This document shows positions 3,830 to 29,203 of a stretch of DNA of 29,203 bases, one piece after another. Position 1 is the stretch's first letter, and every line of letters begins with the position of its first letter. The notes beneath the pieces were generated by a model. The model saw nothing but the letters and a program-made list of their open reading frames with translations. It ran no database searches and was not told the DNA's origin. This DNA is from Escherichia phage ESSI2_ev239: the sequence record NC_049392.1; one strand, given 5' to 3'. The translations under genes were made by a program, and so were the position numbers.

Positions 3830-5403
3830 TATGCGAGTCTCACTATGTAGTTAAATGCAATGTTCTTAACGGTCGTTTCTGCGTTGCCCGACGCGGCGAC
3901 GGTAATGGTGTGACTGTGTGCGCCAATTGCTACGGTATGAGAGTGAGCGCCAATACCTACGGTGTGATTGTGTGCGCCAATGGCTACAGTGTGCGCGTGG
4001 TTTCCCGCCGAACTGGTGGCGGCTCGCCCCTGATCGCTACGTGGTACCCCCCAGTCACTACCACCTGATTGCACGTTCCCGCCATAACCAATGGTGTGCG
4101 TATGCGCTCCCGTGGTATTTGTCGTTTTCGTGCCATAGTCAAACGTGCTCGCCGTTTTAGTACCGTAATCAAAGGATGATGTTGGTTTTGTCCCCAGATC
4201 GGTACTGGATGCACTGGCTGTATGGTCATGAGATTTATTGCCATCATCTTCATAGGAGAGAACTGCGCGACCGTCTGGCTTTCCTTTGATTGTCTGGCGG
4301 CGCATGTCAGTAATAACACCCGATGGATACGCAGCAGCCAGCAATGGATATGCCGCCGTATTAAAAGACTGCCCCTGCATAATTGCCCATCCAGTAGGTG
4401 GGATATCCGTTGGCCATGGAAGCGGCACACCAACCGGCAGAACGTCACTGCGACTTAAAACGGCCAGTTCACCCAGATCCAGACTTTTTCTTGCTTTTAC
4501 CTTATCGTTAACATCAGCAAGGTTTGCATCCTTACGCAAAAAATCGCTGCTGGCCTGCTGTTCTCCCAGGCTACCTTTTGGCCGTAAATCCGTGATGTTG
4601 CCATCCACATCAATGCTGGCCACAGCAAACACATAATGCTGAACCCCGTTCTGAACATAATCAGCAAGATTTGCTGCCACCGTGATTTTGCTCTGCACAT
4701 TCCAGACACTGGTCAGCATCCCTGTCCAGCACACATCCAGCCAGACTTTTACCGGCTTTGCCGTCACCGTAATATTCTGATTCGCAGCCAGTGACGCACG
4801 AAGTCCAGCCACATACCCCGTGCCTTTCGTGACAAAAAACTGATTTCCGGTTTTGGCTACCAGATACCCGTTACCAAAAAACGCCGCCGCGCCATAAATA
4901 TCCATATTTTCCAGGCGCTGGCGCTCATCCATTCCGGCCATACGCGCAGTAAAATCAATCTGCCAGGTTTCAGCGGGTGTATTAATCCCGGTTTCCGTCT
5001 GTGCGCCGTTGTACTCCATCAGAAACGAGCGGGTCAGCACGTTCCCCTGTTGCCCTTCTTTTGTTTTCAGTTTCTGCTGTGATGGTGCATGGACAATCAT
5101 TGCCAGCGTACCGCTGGCCTTATTGAGCAGACCGATCCAGTTAAAACTGAAATCACCCACATCTGCGCCCAGCACTACGGAATAAACCACCCCGTTTTCA
5201 TTCACCACACCGGTGCGGGTAACAGATTGCCGGTGAACAATCTGTGCTGTCGGGGGCAACGCTTCATTGCGGTCAACAGGTGTATCCGGGTTTAAATCCG
5301 GCACACTGGCAAAAACAAATTCGTCCAGTAGTACCGGTTCACCCGTTGCGCCCTGCTGTGCTTTCCAGTTTTCAAACGCCAGTGTGATGGCTGTCTGTGA
5401 CAT
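3829..5403 (-). CDS. Tail fibre protein with His-x-His repeat tip
   Basis: 524 aa; conserved N-terminal attachment region; C-terminal repeats FDYGTKT and GAHxHTV(A/G)IGAH resemble HxH metal-binding tips of T4 gp37-type fibres. Followed immediately by Tfa. Confidence 0.85.
5096..5218. repeat. Direct repeat, copy B (identical to 1-123)
   Basis: See copy A; lies within codons ~62-102 of the tail fibre gene. Confidence 0.9.
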
Positions 5404-7504: not shown

Positions 7505-9468
7505 ACACCCAGCTCCTGATATTCCATTAACTTGCCGGGCGACATCATTTCAGTTGGATAAATATTCACCGTATCAATTCTGCGGCTGTTATCCGTTACT
7601 GATTTAGAATTACTGCTAATTGTTTTACTGATACCGCCTTTATCAACGCCTTTTAATTCACCGCCAGTAGAAAGGGTATTCGTTGTCAGTGCTGGTTGAG
7701 ATTCGTTCGCCAGTGAAATATCGACGCCCGGAATTTTATTGAGTTTTCCGACAATCCAGTTCCACGATTTCAGGAACCCGCCTTTGATGGTCTGCCAGAC
7801 GTTATCAAACAGGGAGACAATCCCGCTGGCCATGCCGCTTAGCGCCTGTGACGGTGAAAAGCCGGTCAGCAGCGCAATAAAGCTGTTCCAGCCGTCCGTG
7901 ATCCATTGCCACGCCGCGGAAAACACGCCGGCAAGCCATTCCACCACACCAGCCACGGCGGTAAACGCTGCCGTATTCATCACCGCCGCTTTCACATCAT
8001 CCCAGTGTTTAATCAGCAGATAACACCCGGCAGCCAGCAGAGCAATCGCCCCGATAACCAGCAGAACCGGCCAGCTCATCAGGTTGATGCCAATACCGGC
8101 CATAATCGCCGCCATACGCACGGCCAGCAGCGTACCCCGCAGGAATTTCAGCGTCAGGTTCCACGCCACAACAGCCTTTGAGGCAATCCAGACAGTGGCC
8201 GCGTAAATCTTCGTGACCAGCGTCAGGGCGCTCCAGAGTCCCTTCAGTCCCACCAGGATAAATTTTGAGACGCCCATGACAATATTTGTCACCGCGCCCG
8301 CTGCCGCCACGCCAAACAGCGCAAGTTGCACGTAACCAATCACCCGCGCAATGTTGGGAAACATCTGCATCCAGCGTCCGAACGTCTGCCCCATATCGGC
8401 CAGGCGGTTCAGTACCGGGTACAGAACCGGGATCAACGTCAGTCCGATCACCGTCTGAATGGCTTTAAGGATTTGTACAAAGCGATCCCACGGCTTGACC
8501 AGCTTCCCGGCCATCTCCTGTGTACGCTTCAGCCCGTCAGAGCCGCCCAGTTCGGTGATATTACGCTGCAGTAACGCCACATTGCCGTACAGATGTTTTA
8601 TCACCGCTGAACTGTCACCAAATGCCGCATCCAGCTCCGCCTGGGCTTTCAGGTTCCCTTCCAGGCTTTTGCCGTATTTGCCCTGCAGCTTGATCAGCAT
8701 TTCAGGCATGGACAGCATTTTGCCGGTGGAGTCCGTGAAGGACAGCCCCAGCTTTTTAGCGCCCTCCATCGCGCCGGTCATGAAGCCTTCGTAAGCGCTG
8801 CTGGCTTCTGTTCCCAGCGTACGGTTGAGCTGCCCCAGCACCGCCAGCTGTTCATCCAGCCCGACGCCGTAGTTAGTCCCGACACCTCGCGCCCCTTCCA
8901 TCAGGTCTTTGATGGTACCCATTTCGGTACCGAAGACCTTGCGCATATACACCATTTTTCCCGCCAGTTGCTCGGCGAACTGGACTTTACCCAGCCGCGC
9001 CGCATCGGCGGAAAAGTTACCGTACATCTGCCCCATAAACTCTGCTGTGTCGGCGGATGTGGATTTCAGGGCAAATGCCAGCGTATTAGCGACCTTCGTC
9101 ACTTTCGGCAGCTCGCTGGCGGTAAGGCCGGCAATGGAAGCGTTAATGTTCTCTGTGGATTTGACGAACTCCACTGCGCTGGCACCGTAGGTCATGCTGA
9201 ACCGGAGCGCATCACGCTGTACGGTCTTTAATGCCTGATTATCAATCCCTTTTGCGGCGGCATCATTCAGCGCGTCGTACATTTCGATAGCCGGCGATAA
9301 CGCGCCTTTTATGGCCATCCCCGTACCGGCCAGCCCCAGCACGCCGCCGCCAATCTGCGAAAAGGCCGCTTTTGATTTTTCCGCAAAGCCGGTGACGCTG
9401 CCCTGCGCCTGTTTTAACGGGCGCGTCAGCTTATCAATCAGGCTTAATGTAAAATCTAACTGTTTCAT
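7501..9468 (-). CDS. Tail tape measure protein
   Basis: 655 aa, Ala/Gly-rich helical N-half and hydrophobic C-half (LAVRMAAIMAGIGINLMSWPVLLVIGAIALLAAG); directly downstream of the frameshifted chaperone. Confidence 0.8.
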   Translation of the reverse strand: MKQLDFTLSLIDKLTRPLKQAQGSVTGFAEKSKAAFSQIGGGVLGLAGTGMAIKGALSPAIEMYDALNDAAAKGIDNQALKTVQRDALRFSMTYGASAVEFVKSTENINASIAGLTASELPKVTKVANTLAFALKSTSADTAEFMGQMYGNFSADAARLGKVQFAEQLAGKMVYMRKVFGTEMGTIKDLMEGARGVGTNYGVGLDEQLAVLGQLNRTLGTEASSAYEGFMTGAMEGAKKLGLSFTDSTGKMLSMPEMLIKLQGKYGKSLEGNLKAQAELDAAFGDSSAVIKHLYGNVALLQRNITELGGSDGLKRTQEMAGKLVKPWDRFVQILKAIQTVIGLTLIPVLYPVLNRLADMGQTFGRWMQMFPNIARVIGYVQLALFGVAAAGAVTNIVMGVSKFILVGLKGLWSALTLVTKIYAATVWIASKAVVAWNLTLKFLRGTLLAVRMAAIMAGIGINLMSWPVLLVIGAIALLAAGCYLLIKHWDDVKAAVMNTAAFTAVAGVVEWLAGVFSAAWQWITDGWNSFIALLTGFSPSQALSGMASGIVSLFDNVWQTIKGGFLKSWNWIVGKLNKIPGVDISLANESQPALTTNTLSTGGELKGVDKGGISKTISSNSKSVTDNSRRIDTVNIYPTEMMSPGKLMEYQELGV

Positions 9469-21155: not shown

Positions 21156-23882
21156 TTATTTTTCCCTACGGAATATCCAGCAACGGAATGTATCCGGCAT
21201 GCGTTGCATTTCACCTTTGCCACGGTTATGGCGTTCACTCACTGCGCTGCGCGTGGTTTTGGTGTCGATAAAACGGCGCTCGTTGCCGTTTTTAAGCAGC
21301 TTTTTAATCTCGGTTAAAGTAAACGGAATACGCTGCCGGTGGGCGGCGGCGACTTCTTCCAGATGGTTAAAATTGACCGCTATTTCACCTTCATCCGATG
21401 AATGGTTAATACCATGCGGTGCCAGCTCGTCGAGGTAGTCAAACAGCTCCCAAAACTCCTGCACCAGAGGGTGATCCTTTTTAAGCGCCTGACACCGTTC
21501 CACGGCCAGCGCGGTGATGGCCTCGCGGGTCTTCTCAATACGCTCCACCGGCACCGGCACAACCAACGCCAGCGCTTCCAGCAAACCGACCAGTTGCGCA
21601 TGGTTTTTGGCGATACGGATATGGCGGATATTGGTATTAGACTCCAGCTCGCCACGGGCGCGTTCGTAGCCCTGGCCAAACACCTTCATGATTTCTTTTT
21701 CACGCATAGTGGCCAGCAGGGTGAAACCAGATACCTGGCTGACTGGGATCTGCTCAAGGCGTTCAGCGGCATAGCGGGTCTGAATAGACTGGCCACGCTT
21801 GTCGGTATAGATGTGGATGATACGCTCCAGAAACGCCTTACTGCCGTCTGTGTCGGCGTTCTGCGCTATCACTATGCTGCCCCTGAATGGCGGCTCGTAG
21901 GTCTCGTTATTGTTCGATTTGATACCCACAGCGCGGGAGGCGCGACCGTTATACAGTGATTTCAGCTCGTCCCAGTCAAAAGCGCGTTGTTTAGCGTTAT
22001 CGGTAGTACGGTCGCCCTCAATCAGCACAACCGGCAAATTACCGACCTGCGCAAAGTTACGGCCACGCGCTGCGGCTGTCGATTTGGAAGGATCAAACCC
22101 TTCATACTCTTCACGGCCGGCGAGTTTCCACAGAAATTCAATCAGCGTGGATTTACCTGTTCCCGGTTCCCCCACGATTTCAAGAAACGGGAAAGACTTG
22201 TCACGCTCGCGGATTTGCTCAGCAAACAGCGACCCCAGCCAGAACGCCAGAGCCACATACCCTTTTTCACCAAAAGCCGTCCAGATATCGTCTACCCAGC
22301 CCGTAGTAAATTCGTTCAGCTTCGGATTCAGATCCAGCGACGGCGTGAGGCTCAGGCTCTTGACGCTGGCGCTGTTGATTTCGAAATAATCTTCATCGTT
22401 CATTTCGTACAGCCGGCCATCACAAACAGCCACGCGATTAAACAGCCATGCAGCATAATCCTTGTTATAGCCAATGAAATTTTGCGTCTTAACCTCTTTG
22501 ATTTCAGGGAGGCGCATCTGGATGAACTTATCCAGCTGTTTGGTACTGCCGGTGTACACCGCACCTTTGGCGATATGCAGCAGACGTTTTTTAAACTCGG
22601 CGGAACTGGTTAACTGGTTGGCCGTGAAAGTATCTTTCACGGCTGGCCGGTTCGGCATATTGACCTTCACGTAATACCAGGACTCGTCTGTAGGTTCAGA
22701 CCGCTGGAAGTAAAGCGGCGTCAGCCAGCAGTTGGCGATTTCAGTCACGCCACCTGACTCTTTAACCGCCCGTTCTTTGGCCTCCCACTCCATCACCACT
22801 TCAGTACCGGTATTGGTGATGCGCTCATAAGCTCGCATGTACCTGTCCAGATCCAGCTCAAACCAGTACATGCGGGAGTTATGCTCAAAATAGAACGAAT
22901 GCCACTCGTTATGCTGATGCATGAGCAACGCTTTTTCAGTCGGGCTTTTCGCCAGAAGGATATCGCCATAGTAGCGATAATTTTTGATGTCCGATTTGCT
23001 GAACCGCCCACGTAAAAGCAGGTCATTCCAGTCCAGACTGGAGGATGATTTCACCGGCTGCGCCGCGCGAACTTTCCAGCCGGCTTCCTCGCTACGGGCA
23101 GCAAAGGCCAGCGTGTGCTTAGTGCCAGCTCTGTCACCATCAAACGCCCATATCAGGCGTGGGCGGGGTTTCTCGCCCAGCTCTTTAGCCAGGGTATCCA
23201 GCGCCACCAGTGGGTAATTATTGCTGCTCAGTGTGGCCACAGCGGGTAAACCCGCCTGGCACAGGCTCAGCGCGTTGAAGATGCCCTCAGTGATCCAGAT
23301 TTCATTCACTTCCAGCAGGTTCACAGACGGCGGAACCCACCAGTGGCCAACGTAGCTGCCTCTGATGTTCGCTTTCTGCTTACCAAAGCGCTGCGGCTGG
23401 TCAATGATGCGCTCCCATGTCGCACCGCAGGTCAGCTTAAATCTGACGGTTGCCGACCCCATACCATCTTTGGCAAACGCCCCCTGGGTAAAGCAACCTT
23501 TCAGCGGTTCAGTATCCAGCCCTCTCGCCTCGCGCAGATACGCCTCAGCTACCGCATGAGGGTTATCTTCTGTGGCCTGGTACCGTTTTGACCAGTCTTC
23601 AAAAATATCCGGATACAGCTCTTTGACAACGACCTGATGGCCGCAGTTGTTTTCGCGGCCGCACTTCAGGATCCAGGGCTTTTCTATGCTGGTAAATAAT
23701 TCACGTTTGTGGCATTTAGGGCAAACGCCCTGTTGCAGATATTTATCCCGTTCCTTGAATTCAAAATCCTGAACGAGTCGGCACACAACGTCCTGCTGTA
23801 TTGTGGCATTCATAATTAATCCAGATGTAGAAAGGTGTGAAAGGCAAAAACTATATTCGGTATTGTTTGTTATATCGCTCAT
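21156..23882 (-). CDS. Replication primase-helicase (zinc-finger + Toprim primase + P-loop NTPase; P4 alpha-like architecture)
   Basis: 908 aa with CPKCH...CGRENNCGH zinc motif, Toprim-like EGIFNA and AFDGDRAG, and Walker A GEPGTGKS. Start may be the internal MNATIQ (about 23813). Confidence 0.75.
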   Translation of the reverse strand: MSDITNNTEYSFCLSHLSTSGLIMNATIQQDVVCRLVQDFEFKERDKYLQQGVCPKCHKRELFTSIEKPWILKCGRENNCGHQVVVKELYPDIFEDWSKRYQATEDNPHAVAEAYLREARGLDTEPLKGCFTQGAFAKDGMGSATVRFKLTCGATWERIIDQPQRFGKQKANIRGSYVGHWWVPPSVNLLEVNEIWITEGIFNALSLCQAGLPAVATLSSNNYPLVALDTLAKELGEKPRPRLIWAFDGDRAGTKHTLAFAARSEEAGWKVRAAQPVKSSSSLDWNDLLLRGRFSKSDIKNYRYYGDILLAKSPTEKALLMHQHNEWHSFYFEHNSRMYWFELDLDRYMRAYERITNTGTEVVMEWEAKERAVKESGGVTEIANCWLTPLYFQRSEPTDESWYYVKVNMPNRPAVKDTFTANQLTSSAEFKKRLLHIAKGAVYTGSTKQLDKFIQMRLPEIKEVKTQNFIGYNKDYAAWLFNRVAVCDGRLYEMNDEDYFEINSASVKSLSLTPSLDLNPKLNEFTTGWVDDIWTAFGEKGYVALAFWLGSLFAEQIRERDKSFPFLEIVGEPGTGKSTLIEFLWKLAGREEYEGFDPSKSTAAARGRNFAQVGNLPVVLIEGDRTTDNAKQRAFDWDELKSLYNGRASRAVGIKSNNNETYEPPFRGSIVIAQNADTDGSKAFLERIIHIYTDKRGQSIQTRYAAERLEQIPVSQVSGFTLLATMREKEIMKVFGQGYERARGELESNTNIRHIRIAKNHAQLVGLLEALALVVPVPVERIEKTREAITALAVERCQALKKDHPLVQEFWELFDYLDELAPHGINHSSDEGEIAVNFNHLEEVAAAHRQRIPFTLTEIKKLLKNGNERRFIDTKTTRSAVSERHNRGKGEMQRMPDTFRCWIFRREK

Positions 23883-25750: not shown

Positions 25751-26734
25751 ATGGCGATTAAGAAGCTCGATGATGGACGTTATGAACTGGACACAAGAGC
25801 GGGCGGACGCACCAGTAAGCGGATCCGCAAAATATTTAACAGAAGGGCTGATGCTGTTGCGTATGAACGCTACATGCTGGGTAAGTTTCAGCGCAAGGAA
25901 TGGGATCCGGCAGCACAGATTGACAGGCGCACGCTGGACGATATCAGAGAATTGTGGTGGCTCTACCACGGCCAGACGCAGAAGAATGGCGAGATTGAAA
26001 ACAGGCATCTCATCAAAACCATTACCGCGCTGGATAATCCGCAGGTAGGCGAGGTTAACAAACGAATGCTGATAGTCCACCGCAGCCGCAGGCTGGCGCA
26101 GGGAATAAGCGCATCCACGGTCAACCGCGATATTTACCGGCTGTCCGGCATGTTCAGCGCACTGATCAAGCTGGATGAGTTTGAGGGGGAAAACCCGCTG
26201 CGTGGTCTGCCTCCCCTGAAAGAGAAAAATCCCGGCATGACCTTTCTCACAAAACCGGAAATTAGCCGCCTGCTGGACACGCTGACGGGCGATTACCGAC
26301 TGGTTGCCCTGCTGTGCCTCAGCACAGGCGGACGCTGGGGAGAGGTCAGTACGCTGACGGAATCGCAGATTATGCACGGCCGTGTCGTATTCCTGGAAAC
26401 GAAGAACGGCAAAAAGCGCGTGGTTCCCATCTCTTCCGAACTGGAAGACGAAATTATGGCCAACGCCAGCGCGGGGCTGTTCCGGGTGGACTATGAAAAC
26501 TTCTGCCGGAAGCTGCGGAAGGTCAAGCCAGACCTGCCACGCGGTCAGGCCACCCACATTCTGCGACACACGTTCGCCAGCCACTTTATGATGAACGGCG
26601 GGAATATCATTGCGCTTCAGCAGATACTTGGCCATGCCAGCATTCAGCAGACGATGGCGTATGCGCATCTGGCACCGGATTATCTCCAGAACGCTATCGC
26701 ACTGAATCCGCTGAAAGGGGGGCTGGGAGTCTGA
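25751..26734 (+). CDS. int: Tyrosine integrase (P2 Int-like)
   Basis: Start MAIKKLDDGRYE, preceded by GGAGGG, matches the P2 Int N-terminus; catalytic region HILRHTFASHFMMNGGNIIALQQILGH...MAYAHL carries the R-H-R-Y signature. Confidence 0.9.
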   Translation: MAIKKLDDGRYELDTRAGGRTSKRIRKIFNRRADAVAYERYMLGKFQRKEWDPAAQIDRRTLDDIRELWWLYHGQTQKNGEIENRHLIKTITALDNPQVGEVNKRMLIVHRSRRLAQGISASTVNRDIYRLSGMFSALIKLDEFEGENPLRGLPPLKEKNPGMTFLTKPEISRLLDTLTGDYRLVALLCLSTGGRWGEVSTLTESQIMHGRVVFLETKNGKKRVVPISSELEDEIMANASAGLFRVDYENFCRKLRKVKPDLPRGQATHILRHTFASHFMMNGGNIIALQQILGHASIQQTMAYAHLAPDYLQNAIALNPLKGGLGV

Positions 26735-26739
26735 TAATT

Positions 26740-26970
26740 CCGTCCACATGTGGACGCATTTTTCCGTTTCGGGACTGCCTGAAACCGCCTGAAACGGAAG
26801 TGTGGACAGTGTGGACGGTAAAATTGGCCTGAAAAGTTTGTAAGTCGTTGAAAAAAAAGACCCCCACATCATGTGGGGGAAGACAGGGATGGTGTTGTTT
26901 TAAAAAGCATAAATCATTGATATTGTTGTATTTATATTGAAATTTCCGTCCACAAAACGTCCACATCGAC
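26740..26970. other. attP attachment site: Int arm-type repeats flanking a hairpin core
   Basis: Left arm GTCCACATGTGGAC (about 26742-26755) and TGTGGACAGTGTGGACGG (about 26801-26818); core hairpin cccccacat-cat-gtggggg preceded by A8 (about 26851-26879); AT-rich spacer; right arm CCGTCCACAAAACGTCCACA (about 26946-26967) in opposite orientation. Confidence 0.6.
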
Positions 26971-27189
26971 CGCAAGCCCCAGTTTCTGGGGCTTTATCAA
27001 AAAAACGTGACGTCTATCACGGTAATGGCGAACTGCAAGAAGTTCGGTTGCCAAATGGCTGATATCGCTTTCTAAATCAATTCAATCTCATATGACATAA
27101 CTACGTTGTGAAACAGGAACTACTGAATGCTGATTCACCATAGATGAAAAAAATGCTAATATCCACAAAAAGGCTAAGCGTAAAATAAA

Positions 27190-28293
27190 ATGAAATATAT
27201 TTTTGAATACGGATTTTATCTCAGCATACTTATAGCGACAATATATGTCACTTCTAAGTTTTTGGGTATTACACCTGCAAAACATAAATACGCCTCACTT
27301 GATGGCTTACGTGGAATTTGTGCAGCAATGGTTGCTGTATTCCATCTTTACTGGAGAGCCGGAGGAGAATCAGATATATACTGGTCTCTTGAGTACATTA
27401 CACTCAGCAATGTAAAACGCGCCATATATCTAACAGGTGAGTTATCTGTTGGTGTATTTTTTATGCTGTCTGCTTTTTTATTTTTCAAAAAGGCACTGGC
27501 GAACTCCTTCGATGTAAAAAGTTTTGCAATTTCACGATTCATGCGAATTTACCCACCTGTAGTGGTTCTTTTATTTATAATATATATTGCAACATTTATC
27601 ATGAATCCGGATGACCATACTCCAGTATCGCAATGGTTTATACCTTCATTACCATTTATATTCAATCCACCTGGAGCTAACATCAATGGTGTATCGCTCC
27701 AGATTGCCACATCTGGTGTGTTCTGGACGTTAGTCTGGGAATTACGCCTATACCTTGCAATTCCATTTTTATATCTGATAATGAAAAACATAAAATATAA
27801 AGAAGCATTTGTTATTTTTTTAATGGGATGTATTTTGTTATTCAAGTATTTTATAAATAATGAACAATACCTGAGTTATATAATGTATTTCCTTGCCGGA
27901 TTTCTTGTCGCTACAATCAAGAGTAACAAGCGCCCATCAGATATAATCTGCGTTTTATTATTATTCGCAGCTATATATTTCACTCGACATGCTTACAACA
28001 CTACAACTCCGCTTTATATGTTTGTTATTTTCTACACAATAAAGTGCGGATGTGATTACTTTGGCTTACTTACATCCCTGCCTGTAACTATGCTGGGAAC
28101 CTGCAGTTTCTCCCTTTATTTAGTTCATGGGATAACTCAGACAGTATCTAAACATTATTTATATAGCACAGGAAACTATGTTTGGCAGATTTGTGCAATT
28201 ATTGCGGCAGGTATCATTGCGCCGGTTATGTACAAATATGTCGAAAGTCGCAGCATCATACATAAGCCTCCTCACCTTCAGATTGCAAAGTAG
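27190..28293 (+). CDS. Acyltransferase family 3 integral membrane protein (candidate O-antigen O-acetyltransferase, lysogenic-conversion moron)
   Basis: 367 aa, about 10 hydrophobic segments, N-terminal signature LDGLRGICAAMVAVFH typical of the Oac/OafA-type acyltransferase-3 family; markedly AT-rich compared with the phage backbone. Confidence 0.75.
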   Translation: MKYIFEYGFYLSILIATIYVTSKFLGITPAKHKYASLDGLRGICAAMVAVFHLYWRAGGESDIYWSLEYITLSNVKRAIYLTGELSVGVFFMLSAFLFFKKALANSFDVKSFAISRFMRIYPPVVVLLFIIYIATFIMNPDDHTPVSQWFIPSLPFIFNPPGANINGVSLQIATSGVFWTLVWELRLYLAIPFLYLIMKNIKYKEAFVIFLMGCILLFKYFINNEQYLSYIMYFLAGFLVATIKSNKRPSDIICVLLLFAAIYFTRHAYNTTTPLYMFVIFYTIKCGCDYFGLLTSLPVTMLGTCSFSLYLVHGITQTVSKHYLYSTGNYVWQICAIIAAGIIAPVMYKYVESRSIIHKPPHLQIAK

Positions 28294-28299
28294 AACATT

Positions 28300-28322
28300 T
28301 GCGCCCCTGAACAGGGGCGTTA
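28300..28322 (+). terminator. Possible intrinsic terminator after the acyltransferase gene
   Basis: GC-rich hairpin gcgcccctg-aa-caggggcg just after the stop; weak U-tract. Confidence 0.35.
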
Positions 28323-28387
28323 TCCCACCGCGCTGTTAAAATTTTGTTTCGTCTCACCCCGCATTTTTAAGTTGCCCATCGGAAAAA

Positions 28388-28653
28388 CGTCACAACCATC
28401 ACACATCAAAGAAACACCACCTATCCACATGATTATCATGAATAAAATTTGTGACGGTAAAACCATCACAAAACGTAACACAAACCGTCACACTCAATAA
28501 ATTCAGCGAGTTATAAAACAGAGCTGTGATGTTTTAAGGCCGTCACACTGTGATGCTCTTGTGATAGTTTTGTGATGGTTTTCAATATATGAATTTACTT
28601 ATACATATCATATAGATAAATGATATTTTTAAAATCTGTGATGTTTGTGACGG
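28388..28653. repeat. Iteron-like array of about 11 TGTGA(C/T)GG motifs in both orientations (candidate replication origin or regulator binding array)
   Basis: Motif copies at about 28388, 28396, 28450, 28463, 28485, 28524, 28540, 28548, 28571, 28636 and 28646, several as inverted pairs; AT-rich block (tatatgaatttacttatacatatcatatagataaatgatattttt) lies inside; no ORF of 60 aa or more. Confidence 0.5.
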
Positions 28654-29126
28654 TTTTCCGATGCTCCCCCTCAATTTTTGAAAAAATAAGAAGTGGTCAG
28701 AAATCACCCTGATTTGTTGGTGAGTTTGTTTCTCTCTCTGTTACTGATTTGGTTACTGGTGGCAGCATGTGTGCACAGGGATGGGAGCAGACGGATCTGT
28801 GCAAGGTATTTCAGTTGTGCCGGTTCGTACAGTTCCCCGTAAACCCGTGCCAGCTGCGGCTTTCTGTTTTTAAACGCTTACGAGAGCCGGCGCCGGCCGT
28901 TACGTAAAAAATCACGTAATCACAACTCATCCCGCATGGCTCAGGGCTTTAGCTCCTGTTACGCCCTGCCTTCCATCGCACAAAAACTGAAATCTTTGAA
29001 ATCTGTTTCACACATTTCAGTTTGAGATCTGGTCTCAAAGCCCCAGCGCTGGCGCGGTCTGGCGGTATGTTTTGTACCCCCGGAAAAACTGAAATCATTC
29101 TCAACACGAAAACCGCAGGCGGGGGC

Positions 29127-29203
29127 CTGTCTCTTATACACATCTCCGAGCCCACGAGACTCCTGAGCATCTCGTATGCCGTCTTCTGCTTGAAAAAAAA
29201 AAA
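29127..29203. other. Sequencing adapter contamination (Nextera read-through adapter with 8-nt index, P7 tail and poly-A)
   Basis: CTGTCTCTTATACACATCTCCGAGCCCACGAGAC + TCCTGAGC + ATCTCGTATGCCGTCTTCTGCTTG + A11 is the standard Nextera i7 adapter structure; not biological sequence. Confidence 0.9.

Follow-up and report, generated by a model that had tools for sequence, protein, structure and literature searches.

Genome context, DNA ends and cos

The window, that is the whole stretch of 29,203 nucleotides that was analysed (Escherichia phage ESSI2_ev239, NC_049392.1), belongs to a P2-like phage and carries terminase, portal, capsid and tail genes together with those for Cox, a C-type repressor and an integrase. 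An array of short repeats is found near its right end, where the order is int, attP, cargo gene, array and cos. The features that frame the array are the following:

27190-28293, + strand: acyltransferase cargo gene
28302-28319, + strand: terminator hairpin of the acyltransferase gene, CGCCCCTG-AA-CAGGGGCG, the left limit of the non-coding region
29115-29126, + strand: right-end half of the cos core (GCAGGCGGG.GC), which lies outside the proposed origin
from position 117 of the window: left half of the cos core (GGTGCGGTGTAGCGCC)
307-2010, - strand: spike-like gene
21156-23882, - strand: primase-helicase of 908 aa, the proposed initiator, of the phiCTX orf37 type (41% identity)

Approximately 1.1 kb without credible ORFs, extending from the acyltransferase gene to the spike-like gene, holds the array, which is flanked by the 3' ends of convergent genes. 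The preliminary description, made from the sequence of the window, had noted the absence of any ORF of 60 aa or more at the array, and indeed none overlaps positions 28294-28948; moreover, no conserved and plausible small ORF was found here in the E. coli relative. In the window 4.5 kb separate the array from the primase gene, with int, attP and the cargo gene lying between them. In the prophage the primase and the array are located near opposite ends.

Two portions of the record are artefacts, namely positions 29127-29203, which consist of Nextera adapter and poly-A, and positions 1-123, which are an exact duplicate of 5096-5218. A core of 19 nt, GCAGGCGGGTGCGGTGTAG, with the dyad ACGAAAACCGC/GCGCCGTTTTCGT on its flanks, is invariant in about 80 related prophages, and both ends of the window as well as the end of contig IMGVR_UViG_2718218027_000005 fall inside it. 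This core is evidently cos, and since genuine DNA ends lie inside it the window is a linear cos-to-cos genome, with the array about 450 bp inside the right end. In all phiCTX-like genomes the distance between array and cos is within 0.2-0.8 kb. In addition, a family-wide repeat, ACTGAAA, is present in four to five copies within 340 bp of cos.

The low G+C content suggested that the array might have arrived together with the acyltransferase cargo, and this possibility was rejected. Most relatives keep the array at 82-99% identity without the acyltransferase, having other cargo or none, and therefore the array is not part of the cargo.

Structure and conservation of the repeat array

Positions 28379-28661 contain 13 iterons with the extended consensus TGTGAYG(G/T)TT, placed in both orientations within 283 bp. 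About 11 copies in approximately 270 bp had been reported in the preliminary description, and this was confirmed, the element being slightly larger. The exact motif TGTGAYGG occurs 11 times in the whole window, with seven of these copies inside 28396-28653, while 2.1 +/- 1.6 are expected for the whole 29 kb and 11 were reached in none of 100 shuffles. With TGTGAYR, 12 sites are obtained in 28388-28652, and the 13th copy is the variant TGTTACG at 28473-28480. No second iteron cluster was found in the window, where at most two copies per 200 bp occur elsewhere, nor was one seen in the loci of relatives that were scanned. The parts of the array are listed below:

28379-28386, + strand: left boundary octamer TCGGAAAA, the inverted partner of 28654-28661
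28387-28403, - strand: left outer iteron doublet ACGTCACA, CCATCACA, with 9-bp spacing, invariant in relatives
28450-28492: left inner cluster TGTGACGG (+), CCATCACA (-), ACGTAACA (-, variant) and CCGTCACA (-), nearly invariant in 14 arrays
28497-28521, + strand: central spacer ATAAATTCAGCGAGTTATAAAACAG, conserved in sequence and IHF-like, at the dyad centre
28525-28578: right inner cluster TGTGATGT (+), CCGTCACA (-), TGTGATGC (+), TGTGATAG (+) and TGTGATGG (+), conserved
28579-28636: AT-rich block of 58 nt with 14% G+C against 51% in the window, a candidate DNA-unwinding element
28605-28618: conserved core ATATCATATAGATA of the AT-rich block
28637-28653, + strand: right outer iteron doublet TGTGATGT, TGTGACGG, with 9-bp spacing
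28654-28661, + strand: right boundary octamer TTTTCCGA

The iterons of the left half lie mostly on the minus strand and those of the right half mostly on the plus strand, and the array as a whole forms an imperfect palindrome of 283 bp with its centre near 28520. Complementarity between the arms 28377-28446 and 28594-28663 (70 nt each) is 73%, and all 16 positions of 28459-28474 pair with 28567-28582. The near-palindromic pairs and the extremely AT-rich stretch mentioned in the preliminary description were both recovered, the former as TGTGACGG-N5-CCATCACA at 28450-28470 and the latter as the block that follows the right inner cluster and precedes the right outer doublet. In the right inner cluster, TGTGATGC, TGTGATAG and TGTGATGG are placed 11 bp apart.

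Among 14 distinct TGTGAYGG arrays the invariant columns amount to 84% in iterons and 51% in spacers (Fisher p = 3e-8). Conservation begins exactly at the left octamer (28379-28386), whereas the sequence further upstream varies with the cargo gene. Apart from the iterons, what is kept within the array is the central site and the core ATATCATATAGATA of the AT-rich block. The central spacer is retained in all array types as YCA(A/G)NNAGTTAT; in the window it agrees with the IHF consensus WATCAANNNNTTR at seven of nine positions, and its phiCTX equivalent, AATCAATAAGTTA, is annotated as an IHF binding site. A block rich in AT is likewise found at the equivalent position in every array type, and in all of them a 9-bp doublet adjoins the flank. 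A candidate DnaA box, TATCCACA at 28424-28431, was dropped because relatives do not conserve it.

The array is present once in the window and once in each E. coli genome that carries it. When it was compared by blastn with 50,697 phage records no match was obtained, which is explained by its being too divergent at the DNA level. A search of 26700-29203 against Rfam gave nothing in the array and only a sub-threshold Hrs1-like match near attP, and four records of a plasmid collection, apparently phage or prophage-like, were not informative.

The primase-helicase and its association with the array

The primase-helicase has Pfam matches to Toprim_3/Toprim_2/DUF5906 and matches PHROG 1139 'DNA primase' with 1239 bits. 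The Toprim domain is placed at residues 195-291 and a Walker A motif, GEPGTGKST, near 571-579. The protein ends in ..TFR900-C901-W902-IF, and a comparison of 10 diverse homologues shows C901, W902 and F904 to be invariant. When the C-terminal 229 and 90 residues were modelled with AF2 (pLDDT approximately 81-82), a helical bundle followed by a beta-alpha-alpha-beta-beta domain was predicted, with R900-C901-W902 in the last strand. Foldseek gave no match for this model, no confident match to the C-terminal fold was found among solved DNA-binding domains, and a sequence search of the PDB with the primase-helicase was equally negative.

The protein had been described as P4 alpha-like, which stands as regards the order of its domains and is only marginal as regards its sequence. 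BLASTP against P4 alpha gave two short, local and collinear matches, one over the Toprim domain (34% over 94 aa) and one over Walker A (35% over 63 aa), each with E = 0.002, and no counterpart of the alpha origin-binding domain was detected. As judged from these marginal matches, the resemblance of the primase-helicase to P4 alpha would be limited to the order of its domains and its mode of action, and membership of the alpha family is not demonstrable.

A 24-mer of the array was found in 14 IMG/VR contigs, and the primase (91-97% identity) is present in all nine of those that are long enough. A set of 5426 complete E. coli genomes contained 22 with the full array, 20 with the primase and 19 with both, although shared ancestry inflates such co-occurrence counts, a single prophage lineage accounting for the E. 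coli cases. The three genomes with the array and no primase contain IS1-deleted remnants of the same raiA prophage. In E. coli EH09-18-41, where the whole prophage was examined, the spike region is 94% identical and the cos core is identical, and there is no array; this prophage has a 186-like CI/CII module and a 'replication endonuclease' as its replication gene. An A-type prophage in 17 further E. coli genomes has the array only as a vestige of about 60 bp (one flank, two iterons and the centre), and in most relatives that share the spike and cos regions the cargo follows directly after a cos-proximal region of about 400 bp, with no array. These distributions are consistent with an array that is kept intact with the primase and is absent or decayed without it.

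All sampled variants of the primase have an array of this kind. Related arrays were also found in more distant lineages, in which the repeat differs as follows:

GGTTACA: L221/L239
CGTTACA: L240-243, L251, L253 and L256
CCTTACA: L254
TGTAAT: L268 (primase 32% identical, array 95 bp after the stop codon)
GGTCACA: L308 and L316
CATCACA only: L275/L120 (primase 61% identical, array cos-proximal)
(A)GGTAAT: phiCTX, Smp131, RSY1 and a Dyella prophage

All of these repeats fit the register NGTNAY. In L221/L239, which have a primase 55% identical, an integrase 47% identical and a 186-like cos, the array lies 170-250 bp 3' of the primase stop codon and consists of TCGGAAA, doublet, spacer, cluster, central AGTTAT site, cluster, AT block, doublet and TTTCCGA, a layout from flank to flank that is common to the array types. 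The left flank octamer itself also occurs in the L221/L239, RSY1 and Dyella arrays. Arrays placed 3' of the primase are found in L285 and L308 as well. Conservation of the motif array near homologous primases had been proposed as a check in the preliminary description, and the search in relatives gave the same layout 95-250 bp after the primase stop codon across such lineages. In the phage of L064 a GGTTACA array was observed at the cos-proximal site. A GGAGTCC cluster in L073 was considered as a further member and rejected, since it is a simple tandem repeat adjoining a reverse-transcriptase cargo gene.

A further association concerns the residue that precedes the invariant Cys-Trp of the primase. 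Across approximately 17 backgrounds, counted without phylogenetic correction, iteron positions 1-2 follow this residue:

Lys: G at iteron position 1 (GGTTACA, GGTCACA, GGTAAT), 11 backgrounds (L239, L244 group, L252, L285, L317, L318/320, L308, L316, phiCTX, RSY1 and Dyella)
Arg: CGTCACA/CCATCACA, window group
Arg: CGTTACA, L240 group and L251
Arg: TGTAAT, L268
Glu: CCTTACA, L254
His: CCATCACA, L120

Even where the primases are 93-95% identical to each other, their tails differ exactly as the array types differ. The early proteins common to the window phage and the L239 type are the primase, C and Int only, with Cox being shared with some L239-type loci, and the mosaic C/cox/int regions seen in phages of the GGTTACA and CGTTACA types do not follow the array type. 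In lineages whose array adjoins the primase gene the two are physically linked, which confounds the covariation in part. Nevertheless the tail and the array are at least 4.5 kb apart in the window and phiCTX lineages, and simple hitch-hiking of one contiguous block fails because in L240, L243 and L253 the Arg-type tail is separated from the complete CGTTACA array by a half-array of the other type. A doubtful exception is L352, in which the primase has a Lys tail and the cluster found 2 kb upstream of it is rich in CGTTACA and atypical in layout. Complete arrays of the own type adjoining half-arrays of another type are found in L240, L243, L253, L242 and L251. Such partial or heterologous arrays share their hot spot with anti-phage cargo genes.

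The array as a putative replication origin

The closest known element is the region of the 'R3 repeats' of phiCTX (NC_003278, 35100-35390, 291 bp), which is located between attP and cosR, the position that the array has in the window. It also contains about 12 copies of a repeat of 6-7 bp in both orientations, with outer doublets, the central AATCAATAAGTTA site and an AT-rich block, and the phiCTX genome encodes a primase of the same family (41-42% identity). The two differ in their repeat, (A)GGTAAT in phiCTX and TGTGAYGG in the window, and in the primase tail, ..TVK-CW and ..TFR-CW, respectively. Judged by this arrangement the window array and the R3-repeat region are homologous elements. 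The GenBank record of phiCTX gives the R3 repeats with two IHF sites and assigns them no function; no origin has been attributed to phiCTX-type phages or to the R3 region in the searchable papers, and the paper on Smp131 contains no discussion of an origin.

The alpha protein of P4 binds type I iterons. It shares with the window primase a zinc motif, Toprim, a P-loop helicase and a C-terminal DNA-binding region, the last being a prediction in the window protein. In the P4 record crr lies 45 bp after alpha and has octamers in both orientations, including a 9-bp doublet, which resembles the arrays found after the primase in L239, L268, L285 and L308, and the P4 repeat, GGTGAACA, fits the pattern NGTNAN of the array family. 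However, P4 requires two separate clusters, ori and crr, whereas the window phage has one, and P4 crr is formed by two direct repeats of 120 bp whereas the window array is a palindrome. In SaPIs the origin follows immediately on the downstream side of rep and is recognised by the Rep C-terminal domain (PMC7581432). The SaPI Rep-ori and SCCmec Cch and Cch2 systems differ in that SaPI primases belong to the archaeo-eukaryotic primase (AEP) family and not to the Toprim type of the window, their hosts are Gram-positive, and the structural scores are modest. Compared with both precedents, the arrays described here occur as one palindromic copy, and those of the window and phiCTX lineages are placed away from the gene and beside cos. 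The window phage falls in one broad group with P2 and 186, having virion genes of the P2 type, packaging by cos and a lysogeny module of C, cox and int, but in those phages the origin is a nick site inside gene A and replication is of the rolling-circle type, an initiation chemistry unlike the one proposed here. The A-type relatives of the window phage lack the array.

Taken with the comparisons above, 28379-28661 is probably (at roughly 0.77) the vegetative replication origin, of the iteron type, recognised by the phage's own 908-aa primase-helicase. An origin had already been suggested in the preliminary description by analogy with P4, and the suggestion is now supported by the co-occurrence with the primase, by the location of the array 3' of the primase in other lineages and by the covariation of repeat and tail. 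In the mechanism that we infer, the C-terminal domain (the last 80 or so residues, including ..R900-C901-W902..) would bind the 13 TGTGAYG(G/T)TT iterons, with R900 as the likely specificity contact. As the oppositely oriented half-arrays flank the central IHF-like bend site, they could position two helicase rings head to head, IHF being a presumed participant, and the block of 58 nt with 14% G+C that lies on the right, between the inner cluster and the outer doublet, would melt. The P-loop helicase might then load itself as a double hexamer, the Toprim domain would prime and a host polymerase would extend, which would lead to theta-type replication starting at this place.

The main residual alternative is a crr-like accessory site, in which the primase-helicase would bind the array as a cis-acting control element (for copy control or 'handcuffing') while initiation takes place elsewhere. 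It fits the position of the array relative to the primase in several lineages, which is that of P4 crr relative to alpha, and the covariation identifies the primase only as a partner and not the place where synthesis starts. P4, however, needs ori in addition to crr and a second cluster did not appear in the window or in the scanned loci of relatives, and the array by itself has the features of a complete origin, namely inverted iteron sets, a bend site and an AT-rich block; this role is consequently thought unlikely. The proximity to cos could instead point to packaging, with the array serving as a cosB-like platform on which the small terminase and/or IHF would aid the recognition of cos. 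The arrays of the window, phiCTX, Smp131 and RSY1 do lie 0.2-0.8 kb from cos on the same side, and IHF sites are annotated inside the phiCTX array. Against this, there are A-type prophages without an array whose cos core is identical and whose virion genes are very similar, with a small terminase annotated as gpM, and the case of EH09-18-41 indicates that the array is not needed by this cos/terminase system. Moreover the L239-type array is about 3.2 kb from cos with reverse-transcriptase cargo in between, the ACTGAAA copies near cos are a better candidate for cosB, and the type of iteron follows the primase tail and not the packaging genes, all of which makes a packaging function highly improbable, although a role linked to packaging is conceivable in the phiCTX-like sub-group, where every array lies near cos.

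Short repeats in both orientations are also typical of repressor or ribbon-helix-helix (RHH) operators, and a terminator-like hairpin is scored at the palindromic iteron pair 28448-28472. The array might accordingly be read as an operator for the C repressor, Cox, an Ogr-like protein or a host factor, by which cargo or late genes are controlled or insulated. A transcription-factor array had indeed been offered as an alternative in the preliminary description. It is not supported, because the C/cox/int regions do not follow the array type, and the convergent 3' ends around the array leave no promoter to control. In addition the array is conserved among relatives in which the adjoining cargo gene varies or is missing, A-type phages without an array also carry an Ogr-like gene, and the inverted pairs have spacings of N11 (28450/28470) and N14 (28525/28547) that differ from the TGTGA-N6-TCACA of a CRP operator; an operator is thus regarded as quite improbable. 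The other alternative raised at that stage, a degenerate transposon end or a miniature mobile element with terminal inverted repeats and subterminal transposase-binding repeats, finds some agreement in the inverted flanks TCGGAAAA/TTTTCCGA, in the 73% complementarity of the 70-nt arms, in the presence/absence polymorphism among related prophages and in the two positions that arrays occupy relative to other genes in different lineages. It is hardly credible nonetheless, since neither the window nor any of the E. coli genomes has more than one copy of the array, its position is always syntenic, and there is no target-site duplication (gcccaT|...|Atgctc, with no direct repeat at 28379/28661). Furthermore the window contains no transposase, the TGT/ACA ends face away from the centre, a polarity that does not suit ends of the Tn7/Mu type, and presence or absence follows the replication module.

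If the array is the origin, as is preferred here, a candidate is now placed at 28379-28661 and a function is proposed for a phiCTX region that is annotated without one. A simple specificity rule can also be offered, which relates the residue before Cys-Trp to iteron position 1. Confirmation would aid the annotation of prophages and the building of phage-derived replicons, and would shed light on the exchange of replication modules and on incompatibility among co-resident prophages and satellites. The pairing of at least eight iteron variants with one variable residue before an invariant Cys-Trp also allows a more speculative and rather doubtful proposal, according to which the arrays would form a modular 'origin specificity code' that is exchanged and stacked, with the partial or heterologous arrays being functional as decoys or landing pads. 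Decoy arrays would in this case titrate the primase-helicase of a competitor, a form of inter-phage replication interference or incompatibility, and landing pads would let a phage be replicated by a co-resident relative.

The P2-like phages that have a phiCTX-type primase-helicase in place of the A nickase are a large group. At least 577 loci with a primase of this type are present in IMG/VR, and the hosts of the group include Enterobacterales, Pseudomonas, Ralstonia, Stenotrophomonas and Dyella.

Contig ends and the cos region

Both ends of the contig are artefacts. On the right, positions 29127-29203 consist of Nextera adapter (CTGTCTCTTATACACATCT CCGAGCCCACGAGAC ... ATCTCGTATGCCGTCTTCTGCTTG) followed by poly-A, and on the left bases 1-123 are an exact copy of 5096-5218, joined at a 7-nt microhomology (GGTGCGG). 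The features recognized near the genome end are the following:

Window 29115-29126 and 117-135; 12776-12800 in the relative's locus L001: cos site, with the 19-nt core GCAGGCGGGTGCGGTGTAG
Window ~28980-29100, e.g. 28983-28994 and 29085-29097: AAACTGAAA(T/A) repeats

The cos core, with the arms of the dyad ACGAAAACCGC / GCGCCGTTTTCGT on either side, showed no variation in about 80 related prophages, although the identity of its flanks falls to about 70%. In the window phage the site is placed between the tail-spike gene and attP, whereas the cos of P2 adjoins the portal gene. Four to five copies of AAACTGAAA(T/A) were found at most 340 bp from cos in all relatives, regardless of the replication module. 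As candidates for a site of terminase recognition (cosB-like), these repeats are more plausible than the iteron array. Some relatives (loci L052 and L065) carry an additional insert of about 600 bp between the array or cargo position and the cos-proximal region, and this insert holds long inverted segments (…gttagtggatg…/…catccactaac…).

The interval between attP and the array

Cargo genes accumulate in a hot spot that runs from attP (or the primase) to the array or cos.

Window 26735-28293; also in relatives' loci L012, L064, L067, L239 and L374: cargo hot spot
Window 27190-28293: acyltransferase cargo gene of low G+C (Acyl_transf_3)

In relatives the same place is occupied by other or unassigned ORFs, a YafO-type toxin, an ATP-dependent nuclease or reverse transcriptases, or is empty. 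The window phage and the E. coli raiA prophages have different integrases, although the array and the acyltransferase are common to both. Directly past int, in the presumed attP region, there is a strong terminator-like hairpin (26861-26879), and positions 26853-26939 gave sub-threshold Rfam matches to Hrs1 (28 bits, E = 0.01) and AgvB. This segment may be a second copy of the 3' end of the host gene targeted for integration. In L073, a spike and cos relative, seven copies of GGAGTCC(C/CA) stand beside a cargo gene (~8080-8180); they were rejected as an iteron array, being a simple tandem repeat unrelated to the arrays, and might be part of a retron-like cassette.

Stacked and vestigial arrays

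Tandem arrays of differing specificity were found in the relatives' loci L240, L243 and L253 (about 100-860 bp past the primase stop), L242 and L251. In these stacked loci GGTTACA-type half-arrays flank a complete CGTTACA array, the type that goes with the Arg-type tail of the primase; the arrangement looks like an insertion of one array into a second. A vestigial array was also observed:

L374 5995-6057: vestigial array (ttggaaaaCCGTCACA, centre, TGTGATA)

It was seen in 17 genomes, among them E. coli EC42405, in a raiA-integrated prophage with an A-type replication endonuclease and ParM-type partition genes.

As annotated, the primase CDS of Smp131 (L288 1407-3959) ends in unrelated C-terminal sequence in place of the conserved ..KCW.. 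tail, which points to a truncated gene, or else to a record that contains a frameshift.
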